The notes beneath the pieces are model-generated. The model made no database searches and was not told the origin of the DNA. It saw only the letters and a list, made by a program, of their open reading frames with translations. The position numbers and the translations under genes are program-made. From an uncultured Actinomycetes bacterium (GTDB taxonomy: Bacteria; Actinomycetota; Acidimicrobiia; IMCC26256; DASPTH01): a DNA stretch of 64,000 nucleotides. The stretch spans positions 722,613-786,612 of the forward strand of contig CAVZKC010000004.1 in NCBI GenBank assembly GCA_963775795.1, in the 5' to 3' direction. This document shows, one piece after another, positions 24,134-26,876 of this stretch (within the stretch, counting starts at the first letter, position 1; every line of letters starts with the position of its first letter).

Positions 24134-24439
24134 GGTCGTTCCTGGTCTTGTCGTGCGGCGTCTTCGCGCGCTCTGCTCACGCGAACGCTCCGCCCGGTAT
24201 GGACCCGGCGGAGCGGTGATCGGTTGTGCCGTGCGGTTCTGCGGACGGGGCCGCAGCCTGCGCGGACGTCGGTTGACGAAAGGTTCCGGACGGGTGCCGG
24301 ACAGCTGGGGCACACCGGCGAGCCCCGAAAGACTAGCGGCTGCCCTTCCGGGCCGCCAAGCCGGTGGTGGCTCAGTTTGGGGGGATCAGCAGTCGCCCTC
24401 GTACTCGCTGACGCGGACCTGGTTCGGTTCCGGGCCGGT

Positions 24440-24469
24440 GACGGCGACGGCGACGGCGACGGCGACGGC
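24440..24469 (+). repeat. hexanucleotide microsatellite (GACGGC)5
   Basis: Five perfect tandem units, ending 6 nt before ATG 24476 of the membrane-protein gene. It is in frame with that ORF and would read (Asp-Gly)5 if an upstream TTG or CTG start were used. Confidence 0.92.
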
Positions 24470-24475
24470 GGGATC

Positions 24476-25407
24476 ATGCTGCGATACGCGCGACCGCGCT
24501 TGGTCGTCCCGTACCCTCTCGCCGTGTCCACGTCCTACGTCACGCCCCCCGAAGGTTGGACCCGCGAGGACGCGGGTGGCGTGGGGGCGTTCGTCACGCG
24601 AGAGACGTTCCGAGCCCCCGACGGCGCGGTCGTCACGTGGACGTCACGCGAGCATCGCAAGCAGGCGGGCCAGCTCGACGTCGGTCGCGGATCCACGTGG
24701 TGGGCACCGTCAGCGCTGGGCTGGTGGATCGGAGTCCTCTTCGCCGTCGGCGCGGCGTGCTTCACCGTGGGCGCGACGCCGGGATTCGCCGATGCGGTCG
24801 GCGCGGACACCGACGCGGTCACGTTCTTCGTGGGGTCACTCTTCTTCACCACTGCGGCGTTGCTCCAATACCTCCAGACGGTCAACGCGCCCGCGCGCTC
24901 GACGCCGCCGGGGTCGACGAACGGTTCCGGTTCTGGGCGTGGGAACCCGGGCGCATCGACTGGACGTCGAGCTCGGTGCAGCTCCTGGGAACGGTCTTCT
25001 TCAACGTCACCACGTTCGCCGCGCTCGACGCGACGCTCTCGACGCAGCAGGCAGAGCGCCTGGTGTGGGTGCCCGACGCCGCCGGCTCAGTGTGCTTTCT
25101 CGTCGCCAGCTGGCTGGCGTGGACAGAGGTCGCGCACAGCTCGTGGGCTTTTCGGCCCCGCAGCTTCTCGTGGTGGGTCGCGGGGCTGAACCTGCTGGGG
25201 TCCGTCGCCTTCGGCCTTGCGGCCGGCGCGTCGTTCATCGTGCCGACGACGGGCGAGCCGCGCAACGTCGATCTCGTGAACCTGGGCACCGCGATCGGTG
25301 GCCTGTGCTTCTTCGTCGGCGCGCTGTTGCTGCTCCCGGAACGCACCCGCGTCGCGCCGGTAAGAATGCACCCGACCAAGGAGGCCACCCGTGGCGCTGC
25401 ACCGTAA
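24476..25407 (+). pseudogene. integral membrane protein built from three 2-TM repeat units (YrhK-like?), frame-disrupted as assembled
   Basis: Frame a (track ORF 23927..25189, ATG 24476): STWWAPSALGWWIGVLFAVGAACFTVGA...FFVGSLFFTTAALLQYLQTVNAP. Frame b (ORF 24556..25407): FRFWAWEPGRIDWTSSSVQLLGTVFFNVTTFAAL...FSWWVAGLNLLGSVAFGLAAG...GLCFFVGALLLLPER. The frames meet near the G4 run 24910-24913. The family name is a guess from the motif pattern. Confidence 0.6.
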
Positions 25408-26776
25408 GACCGACGACGACACGCCGATCGAGCTCAACCCGATGTACTCCCAGCAGGGCGAGACGGTGCACGCTCCCCGCCACGCCCTGCCCAAGCACGA
25501 GCTCGATCCCGACGTCGCCTACCAGCTCCTCCACGACGAGCTGATGCTCGACGGCAACTCACGTCTCAACCTGGCCACATTCGTGACCACGTGGATGGAG
25601 CCGCAGGCGCAACGGCTCATGGCCGAGACGTTCGACAAGAACATGATCGACAAGGACGAGTACCCGCGCACCGCCGAGATCGAGCTGCGCTGTGTCAACA
25701 TGCTCAGCCGCCTGTGGAACTCACCCAGCTCCGAGGAGGCCACCGGCACGTCGACCACCGGGTCGAGCGAAGCCGCCATGCTCGGTGGGATGGCCCTGAA
25801 GTGGCGCTGGCGGGACCGTCAGCGAGCGGCCGGCAAGCCCACGGACCGTCCCAACATGGTGATGGGCGCCAACGTCCAGGTGTGCTGGGAGAAGTTCTGC
25901 CGCTACTGGGACGTCGAGGCGCGGCTGGTGCCGATGGAAGGGGACCGCTACCACCTCACCGCCGAGGCCGCGATCCCGCACTGCGACGAGAACACCATCG
26001 GCGTCGTGCCTGTCCTCGGGTCCACGTTCGACGGGAGCTACGAGCCGGTGGCGGAGATCTGCGCGGCGCTCGACACGCTCCAGGCCGACACCGGCCTCGA
26101 CGTCCCCGTGCACGTCGACGCGGCGTCGGGCGGATTCATCGCCCCGTTCCTCGATCCCGACATCGTGTGGGACTTCCGTCTTCCCCGGGTACAGTCGATC
26201 AACACCTCGGGGCACAAGTACGGGCTCGTCTACCCGGGCGTCGGCTGGGTGATCTGGCGCAATCCCGACGCTCTGCCGCAGGACCTCGTGTTCGACGTGA
26301 ACTACCTCGGCGGCGACATGCCCACCTTCGCGCTGAACTTCTCACGGCCGGGGAACCAGATCGCCGCGCAGTACTACAACTTCCTCCGCCTCGGGTTCGA
26401 GGGATACCAGCGCGTACAGCAGGCGTCGCGAGACGTCGCGCGCTACCTGGCCGACTCGATCGCGGGCATCGAGCCGTTCGAGCTGATCACCGATGGGAGC
26501 GAGCTCCCGGTGTTCGCGTTCACGATCAACCGGGACATCACGAACTGGTCGGTGTTCGACCTCTCCGAGCGCTTGCGCGACCGCGGCTGGTTGGTGCCGG
26601 CGTACAGCTTCCCCGAGAACCGCCAGGACCTCACGGCGTTGCGAATCGTCATCCGCAACGGCTTCTCGCGCGACCTCGCCGAGCTGTTGCTCGCCGACCT
26701 CAAGCGACACGTCGCCTACTTCGACCGCCTCACCTCCCCGCTTCCCGGCGACGGCAAGGCCAGCTTCAGCCACTGA
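25391..26776 (+). CDS. gadB: glutamate decarboxylase (PLP-dependent)
   Basis: Track ORF of 461 aa with a GTG start. [30 protein letters not shown] and the PLP-lysine motif [22 protein letters not shown] are present. Confidence 0.93.
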
Positions 26777-26823
26777 CCGCGGCTGCGGCGGCCCCAACCC
26801 CCCAGAGCCGACGGTCCGCGCGC

Positions 26824-26848
26824 GCGGCAGCATCGCCGCGGCTGCCGC
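26824..26848. terminator. GC hairpin between convergent gadB and rpsJ (candidate bidirectional terminator)
   Basis: GCGGCAGC-N9-GCTGCCGC, an 8-bp stem. It lies 48 nt after the gadB stop and 29 nt after the rpsJ stop. There is no clear U-tract on either strand. Confidence 0.3.
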
Positions 26849-26876
26849 TCGGTCACGCCGCGAACGTTATCCCGGC

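Follow-up and report, generated by a model that had tools for sequence, protein, structure and literature searches.

A candidate ribosomal protein leader at a probably shifted, insertion-prone operon boundary in Acidimicrobiia

How do rpsJ and rplC come to stand apart, and how would the ribosomal protein (r-protein) genes behind rplC be expressed once they do? Few features of bacterial genomes are as well conserved as the order of r-protein operons. In the 64,000-nt stretch of DNA analyzed here (the window; positions 722,613 to 786,612 of contig CAVZKC010000004.1, assembly GCA_963775795.1, from an uncultured soil member of the Acidimicrobiia), rpsJ, encoding S10 (NusE), and rplC, encoding L3, are separated by 2,743 nt (24134-26876) that carry a membrane protein gene and a glutamate decarboxylase (GAD) gene on the opposite strand. 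We propose, with a probability of roughly 0.7, that rpsJ ends the str-tuf unit, that rplC and the genes that follow it form a separate operon with a candidate r-protein leader, and that the boundary between the two units is a permissive insertion site. The candidate leader family and the shifted, insertion-prone operon boundary in Acidimicrobiia are what is new here.

The minus strand of the window reads, in order, rpoC, rpsL, rpsG, fusA, tuf, and rpsJ. An initial annotation of this DNA had reported rpsJ as split from rplC, and profile matches (PF00338 and PF00297) bear out its gene calls and coordinates. Between tuf and rpsJ there are 38 nt (27204-27241), a spacing that is tight in relatives too, and this spacer is too short for an rpsJ promoter plus leader. 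The arrangement suggests that rpsJ is transcribed together with tuf and that a new unit begins at rplC. Along the rplC block, stop and start codons overlap: by 4 nt between rplC and rplD (23480-23483) and again between rplD and rplW (22770-22773). The same annotation had remarked that autoregulation through an S10 leader could not reach the rplC block. That remark is moot, because the leader through which L4 acts on the S10 operon of E. coli does not occur outside Gammaproteobacteria (PMC3616713) and rpsJ here, so close behind tuf, is leaderless.

A candidate leader and promoter upstream of rplC

Two samples of loci underlie the comparison. We retrieved 80 genome loci by similarity to the window L3, searching every one for tuf, rpsJ, rplC, and rplD, and we retrieved 65 metagenome contigs by an exact 19-mer of the leader (AACCGCACGGCACAACCGA), one of them a chance match. 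When the DNA upstream of rplC in the window was aligned with that of L001 and L002, its closest relatives in the first sample, ~110 nt were near-identical amid unrelated sequence. A structured element of ~100 nt lies there (Table 1), in keeping with the initial annotation, which had called for a leader of the rplC block's own within 24134-24475. It occurs in the window, L001, L002, L146-L150, L152, and about 60-64 metagenome contigs. In all leader-bearing loci examined, the element is on the rplC strand, 20-125 nt before the rplC start, and the 19-mer lies 75-150 nt upstream of rplC wherever a contig includes that gene, the chance match excepted. Among 81 sources, covariance model R1 of the element matched only the window, L001, and L002 and none of the 77 loci in which rpsJ and rplC are unsplit; it also matched every rplC-bearing contig of the 19-mer set. 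Weak R1 matches in L029 (1414-1493), in L064, and at 52308-52422 of the window (E 0.07-0.4) were treated as noise.

From 5′ to 3′, the leader consists of CAAYCGAC, helix P1, ACAACCGA, helix P2, and UUCGCGUGA. P1 joins GUCCGnGC to GCACGG-C-AC and encloses a hairpin that varies in sequence and length. P2 joins CGCUCCGC to GCGGAGCG and is extended by CGA/UCG, its arms occupying 24186-24198 and 24203-24215; the stem GCTCCGC/GCGGAGC never varies. In a MAFFT alignment of 28 sequences, 93.6% of cells pair under this structure, and when the partners are slid by 1-3 columns just 26-53% of cells do so; slid controls overall range from 25 to 53%. Pairs that change on both sides number 8 in alignment A2 and 13 in alignment A3, the latter having been fitted to the covariance model. 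None of 500 shuffles reached the covariation score, and unguided RNAalifold predicts essentially the same fold. L147-L149, which were found through GAD and independently of the 19-mer, are the informative cases for P1, because the other contigs had been selected by the exact 19-mer; in these three loci P1 carries compensatory changes from C:G to U:A and from U:A (or C·A) to C:G. The fixed position and orientation in the 5′ untranslated region (UTR), together with covariation, are what is expected of an r-protein leader, in a sample that was selected by motif.

The element matched no family in Rfam 15, either when the whole window was scanned at the gathering threshold or when 24080-24480 was scanned at E values up to 10; these scans returned tRNAs and noise only. 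By its place upstream of rplC, the lack of a U tract behind P2, and the absence of an Rfam match, 24176-24275 is not an L4-type E. coli S10 leader. A literature search of incomplete coverage found no description of an rplC leader in Acidimicrobiia.

A promoter-like pair precedes the leader. The motif TTGGCR-N17/18-TAGTCT-TTYCGGGCTCGCC is conserved upstream of the leader in the sub-clade of the window (with L146-L150 and L152), and in the window it takes the form of a −35 hexamer TTGGCG (24359-24354), an 18-nt spacer, and a −10 hexamer TAGTCT (24335-24330). More widely, 53 of the 54 unique loci contain a TAnnnT hexamer in the 130 nt that precede the leader (0.48 expected from shuffles), with the hexamers clustered 36-72 nt upstream of it, and 35 of the 54 loci add TTGnnn at a spacing of 16-19 nt. 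A generic scan for sigma-70 consensus promoters over 23400-27400 found no site, and the pair is visible by conservation alone. The initial annotation had held that the block needs its own promoter within 24134-24475, and the predicted pair falls in that range.

Several points weigh against the proposal, besides the fitting of A3 noted above. Selection by an exact 19-mer makes the invariance of that 19-mer true by construction, and split genomes that lack the leader would be missed. G-U and A-C cells are close in number (55 and 43), so that the counts leave the strand unsettled. By k-mer comparison and local alignment, the leader scored no better than shuffles against E. coli 16S, 23S, and 5S rRNA; the sole shared rRNA 9-mer, GGAGCGTTC (E. 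coli 23S position 1192), is about at chance level. Likeness to the rRNA site of the ligand is frequent, though not general, among r-protein leaders. The distance from leader to start codon varies from about 20 to 125 nt, and the Shine–Dalgarno region lies outside the conserved core. P2 is followed by UUCGCGUGA and by no U tract, which makes classical attenuation unlikely. The promoter assignment, the point at which the rpsJ transcript stops, the action of the element as RNA, and the identity of its protein ligand are inferences.

Some of these observations suit a structured RNA with a task other than sensing an r-protein. It might be a riboswitch for a small molecule, a site for Nus factors or antitermination, or a point of entry for RNase or Rho by which the long r-protein transcript is tuned. 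The unpaired segments that never vary (CAAYCGAC, ACAACCGA, and UUCGCGUGA) would be suited to a ligand pocket or factor site, the lack of detectable mimicry of E. coli rRNA and the variable distance to the start codon fit as well, and the departure of rpsJ (NusE) from the operon might be tied to Nus-type control. We nevertheless regard such a role as fairly unlikely: the known conserved leaders of r-protein operons that have an assigned ligand all bind r-proteins (PMC3616713, PMC7247131), the element resembles no riboswitch or other Rfam family, and no boxA-like sequence was seen, as judged by eye only. In their invariance, the P2 stem and the single-stranded segments resemble a site for protein binding.

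A protein site might also be read at the level of DNA, as a transcription-factor operator or an extended part of the promoter. The invariant GCTCCGC/GCGGAGC stem does resemble a palindromic operator, and the G-U and A-C counts do not fix the strand. Such an element is unlikely on three grounds. The spacing of the P2 arms and the length of the hairpin inside P1 vary from ~4 to 40 nt, which hairpins tolerate and dimeric operators do not; compensatory changes maintain pairing in P1 and the inner helices; and the element, with the conserved −10-like hexamer upstream of it, would be transcribed.

Variation around the conserved core was seen in some lineages. In L087, L093, L101, and L103, the leader tail GCGUG can pair with CACGC before the AUG, looping out the Shine–Dalgarno sequence. 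In L094, L095, L099, L113, and L126, CUCCGC (the 5′ strand of P2) is repeated downstream of that helix and could take part in an alternative one. Both features are possible lineage-specific expression platforms.

Distribution of the split and turnover of its cargo

The initial annotation had treated the interval as an acquisition of this genome, to be taken as lineage-typical instead if the whole order shared the arrangement. In 77 of the 79 genome loci that carry both genes, rpsJ ends 9-125 nt before rplC; these unsplit loci include Streptomyces, Nocardia, Microbacteriaceae, and six Acidimicrobiia metagenome-assembled genomes (MAGs). The two split exceptions, L001 and L002, are Acidimicrobiia MAGs whose L3 and S10 are 80-81% and 92-93% identical to those of the window. 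The gap of L002 is 207 nt and holds no gene. That of L001 is 2,103 nt and holds three opposite-strand genes unrelated to the window's, encoding an HTH_3 protein, an AbiEii-like nucleotidyltransferase, and a sulfotransferase-like protein. All 31 contigs of the 19-mer set that bear both genes have a gap, of 205-3,996 nt, which holds cargo in 10 of them, and in some other contigs of that set the 4.6 kb or 12.8 kb of upstream DNA contain no rpsJ. The L3 proteins encoded by the 19-mer contigs are 51-87% identical to that of the window. The split is thus an old lineage trait, far older and wider than the window's own cargo. Synteny makes the arrangement lineage-typical, and the idea of an acquisition peculiar to this genome fails: the same order is present in six other assemblies, and the split and leader are present in dozens of more distant relatives with other cargo or none.

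Many short-read contigs end in or just after tuf, ~450-700 nt upstream of rplC (L004, L012, L015, L020, L023, L042, L044, L046, L051, L075, and many of L081-L145). These ends are probably assembly breaks at the highly conserved or duplicated tuf.

The window's own gene pair has a narrower history. A YrhK-like membrane protein gene and GAD lie between rplC and rpsJ in L152 (GAD 85% identical to that of the window) and in L150 (NCBI GCA_046331125.1; 80%), and the pair is likewise present in L146, which has 99.6% contig DNA identity to the window and an exactly matching GAD protein. Further genes follow the pair in L147 (GAD 86%; glyoxalase-like and SnoaL genes, 3.8 kb), L148 (87%; SDR, dioxygenase, and others, 5.5 kb), and L149 (85%; SDR, DUF899, MIP, TetR, and others, 9.1 kb). 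GAD homologs at 80-91% identity exist, and those at 77-79% (L151, L154, L155, and L156) are elsewhere in the genome with no YrhK neighbor. Because the pair stands beside rplC in six loci and GAD sits elsewhere below 80% identity, we conclude that a gap already present received the pair at the base of a genus- or family-level group, in which it has been inherited since.

Other leader-bearing lineages carry AI-2E family transporters, an ABC-2 transporter with an AbiEi/DUF559 protein, a PrmA-like methyltransferase, another methyltransferase, a scramblase-family protein, or a toxin-antitoxin pair. At least eight different gene sets were seen, mostly on the opposite strand. For this survey, cargo open reading frames (ORFs) were picked by GC content at third codon positions (GC3), and those that spuriously crossed the leader (for example at the N-termini in L091, L096, and L145) were trimmed before the Pfam search. 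One lineage (L145, L119, L120, L124, and L132) has the PrmA-like gene, a member of the L11 methyltransferase family (E 1.7e-35), in opposite orientation in its gap; no other cargo observed is connected with the ribosome. A similar sulfotransferase-like gene stands tail-to-tail with rpsJ in L001 (3921-4700) and in L105/L118 (1815-2543); since these are two different leader-bearing lineages, some cargo is common to lineages.

A recent horizontal acquisition would have placed a 2.7-kb two-gene cassette into an intact rpsJ-rplC junction, after which a makeshift rplC promoter evolved. Most Actinomycetota do have rpsJ abutting rplC, the cargo genes are non-ribosomal and run the opposite way, and the location of the more distant GAD homologs implies that GAD moved here at some time. 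Yet the arrangement recurs in the six other assemblies, and the split, promoter, and leader are found in relatives with different cargo or none. The interval itself bears no mark of a mobile element or genomic island: its GC content (0.66-0.71) equals that of the flanks, no direct or inverted repeats flank the insert, no tRNA target is near it (the nearest tRNA is 16 kb off), and Pfam searches of all long ORFs found no integrase, transposase, or other mobility gene. A recent acquisition is therefore very unlikely; refuted as a recent event, it is tenable only in the form of an old insertion, made when the sub-clade began, into a gap that was already there.

Chimeric joining of an unrelated fragment, at 24.1-24.5 kb or 26.8 kb, has a negligible chance of explaining the order, even though the window is a metagenome assembly with indel-type defects relative to L146 (a frameshift at 24889 and a 10-nt indel in the L22 gene), because ERZ25039533, ERZ25039562, ERZ25039539, ERZ25039549, and GCA_046331125.1, from other samples and another project, show the same order and conserved junctions; the misassembly that the initial annotation had wished to see checked is thereby excluded.

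Genes and repeats of the window interval

Table 1. Features at the rpsJ–rplC boundary of the window
Feature	Position	Strand	Basis
rplC (L3)	23480-24133	-	PF00297; ORFs; L146 gene list
Candidate structured 5′ leader of rplC operon (~100 nt)	24176-24275	-	covariance model R1, 95.1 bits, E 2.7e-19
Promoter-like pair (−35, 18-nt spacer, −10)	24330-24359	-	conservation
(GACGGC)n hexamer array just before membrane gene ATG	24436-24470	.	Tandem Repeats Finder (TRF), 5.8 copies
YrhK-like membrane protein gene	24476-25407	+	two-frame ORFs; PF14145 after repair
Glutamate decarboxylase, pyridoxal phosphate (PLP)-dependent	25391-26776	+	PF00282, E 1.2e-81, residues 41-378
GC-rich inverted repeat GCGGCAGC ... 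GCTGCCGC	26824-26848	.	between convergent GAD and rpsJ ends
rpsJ (S10/NusE), last gene of rpsL-rpsG-fusA-tuf-rpsJ run	26877-27203	-	PF00338, E 3.7e-36
tuf (EF-Tu)	27242-28432	-	ORF; Pfam labels of same gene on L146

The two plus-strand genes of the interval are those that the initial annotation had named. The GAD translation contains the PLP lysine motif SGHK, and homologs of 77-91% identity carry the source name glutamate decarboxylase; with the PF00282 match, these features assign the predicted product to the group II PLP decarboxylases. Its GTG start overlaps the 3′ end of the membrane protein gene by 17 nt.

The membrane protein gene is spread over two frames in the window, and there alone, because one nucleotide is missing from a C run at 24889. 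In L146 (ENA ERZ25039533; 593,880 bp; 99.63% identical), one extra C at this position leaves the gene intact. The repaired protein passes the Pfam cut-off for YrhK (PF14145; 27.3 bits vs 26.1) and is 68-70% identical to the GAD partners of L148, L150, and L152, the region of the break included. The intact copy, the Pfam match, and the identity across the break therefore point to a homopolymer or sequencing error, or else a strain-specific lesion (a pseudogene). Split genes were also seen elsewhere in related long-read contigs (rpoC and L24 in L146; L14 and L5 in L149), which suggests homopolymer errors in these assemblies. With the N-terminal half of the membrane protein as query, the locus comparisons gave no match outside the GAD-bearing sub-clade. 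The (GACGGC)n array is 24 nt (four units) longer in L146 and thus strain-variable in copy number; it may sit in a divergent promoter region or, if an upstream TTG starts the gene, in the N-terminus of the protein.

GAD is translationally coupled to the YrhK-like gene in seven loci; in L151 it adjoins an Ion_trans channel gene instead. The pairing of a PLP glutamate decarboxylase with a membrane protein gene recalls GadB/GadC acid resistance, but the partner in the window matches only YrhK and no APC-family glutamate/γ-aminobutyrate (GABA) antiporter, and no GadC-type antiporter adjoins GAD in the window or in the L147-L152 contexts. The pair was accordingly rejected as a GadBC-type acid-resistance module. 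The YrhK-like protein may be an uncharacterized membrane partner for GABA or glutamate handling.

Between the convergent ends of GAD and rpsJ, the GC hairpin that the initial annotation had pointed out is present, and it cannot be told from background. It folds no better than shuffles of equal composition (z −0.8 and +0.35), a U tract is lacking, and a terminator scan of 23400-27400 returned no site. Nor is the site conserved: L150 has an unrelated, much stronger hairpin, and L152 only a 24-nt spacer. The repeat was rejected as an intrinsic terminator on these grounds; it may help to terminate the two converging transcripts.

Farther along the block, a perfect (TCGTGA)7.5 hexamer repeat (20844-20892) lies inside a long C-terminal extension of L22, and the L22 frame of the window reads stop-free into S3 (ORF 19776-21731, minus strand, 651 aa). 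In L146, a 10-nt indel falls at this repeat, and L22 (216 aa) and S3 are separate; in L152, an L22-S3 fusion of 535 aa was called. The ORF of the window may be a real fusion or an indel error.

Proposed mechanism and relation to known systems

From the observed gene order and its distribution, the conserved structured element, the conservation of the promoter-like pair, and the diversity of cargo, we propose the following course of events. In a large branch of the Acidimicrobiia, the line that divides the str transcription unit from the S10 unit would have shifted by one gene, from tuf|rpsJ to rpsJ|rplC. rpsJ would then be expressed as the tail of rpsL-rpsG-fusA-tuf-rpsJ, and the rplC block from its own promoter with a 5′ UTR of ~190 nt, the core of which would be a ~100-nt RNA of two helices and invariant unpaired stretches. 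A new leader would have evolved, or been retained, at the new 5′ end of the operon. This RNA would most likely be a feedback sensor for an r-protein encoded downstream, with L4 as the first candidate ligand by analogy with E. coli and Archaeoglobi, and the overlapping stop and start codons would relay a translational effect down the block. The stretch between the rpsJ stop codon and the rplC promoter would be a neutral gap between operons, where insertions harm neither unit, and different lineages would have filled it with different, mostly opposite-strand genes. The group to which the window belongs would have received its translationally coupled YrhK-like and GAD genes in this way and passed them on vertically since.

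One close parallel is the S10 leader of E. coli, which is controlled by L4 (PMC3616713, PMC10931766). Both are long structured 5′ UTRs before a block encoding L3, L4, L23, L2, S19, L22, and S3, among others, and both would follow the presumed logic of one leader over many translationally coupled r-protein genes. The E. coli leader, however, precedes rpsJ and ends in a U-tract attenuator, whereas the leader of the window precedes rplC, leaves rpsJ outside the unit, and lacks such an attenuator; the Rfam scans revealed no match between the two in sequence or structure. Candidate leaders directly upstream of rplC have been reported as the L4-Archaeoglobi r-leader (PMC7247131, Table 1) and as an RNA structure in cyanobacteria (PMC12873609). 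These also stand before rplC-rplD-rplW-rplB with S10 outside the cluster. They belong to other phyla, and the leader of the window has no match in Rfam 15.

In cyanobacteria and plastids, too, rpsJ lies behind tuf and is detached from rplC. Archaea have the order S12-S7-EF-2-EF-1a-S10, with uS10 always apart from uL3-uL4-uL23 (PMC10833476). The window shares with the archaeal order the attachment of rpsJ behind tuf and its detachment from rplC; it differs in that its split arose within the Actinomycetota, other members of which keep rpsJ and rplC adjacent, and in that the two halves usually stay neighbors across a variable gap. The insertions themselves have a counterpart in the translation operons of Gammaproteobacteria, between which small multigene insertions occur, such as bfd-bfr-hopD between str and S10 in Salmonella (PMC6735719). 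There, as here, non-mobile cargo of a few genes lies between the last stop codon and the next promoter, and its content is lineage-specific (PMC6735719). The boundary in the window is rpsJ|rplC rather than tuf|rpsJ, and the turnover of cargo is high.

For most phyla we know of no regulators of r-protein operons. We suggest tentatively, at a little under even odds, that the element represents a new class of r-protein leader that controls ~20 or more contiguous r-protein genes in much of the Acidimicrobiia and arose with a rewiring of archaeal or cyanobacterial type that put S10/NusE on the str-tuf transcript, the boundary since serving accessory genes as a recurrent landing site. The locus would offer a clean natural case in which an operon boundary moved by one gene, a new structured leader stands at the new boundary, and the boundary then became an insertion hot spot. 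It supports the view that the translation supercluster tolerates insertions solely in the space from a stop codon to the promoter that follows. Annotators should be aware that the S10 operon of these organisms is one without S10. For a little-studied class, common in soil and water and for the most part uncultured, the leader and its putative protein ligand would provide a testable candidate RNA-protein pair.

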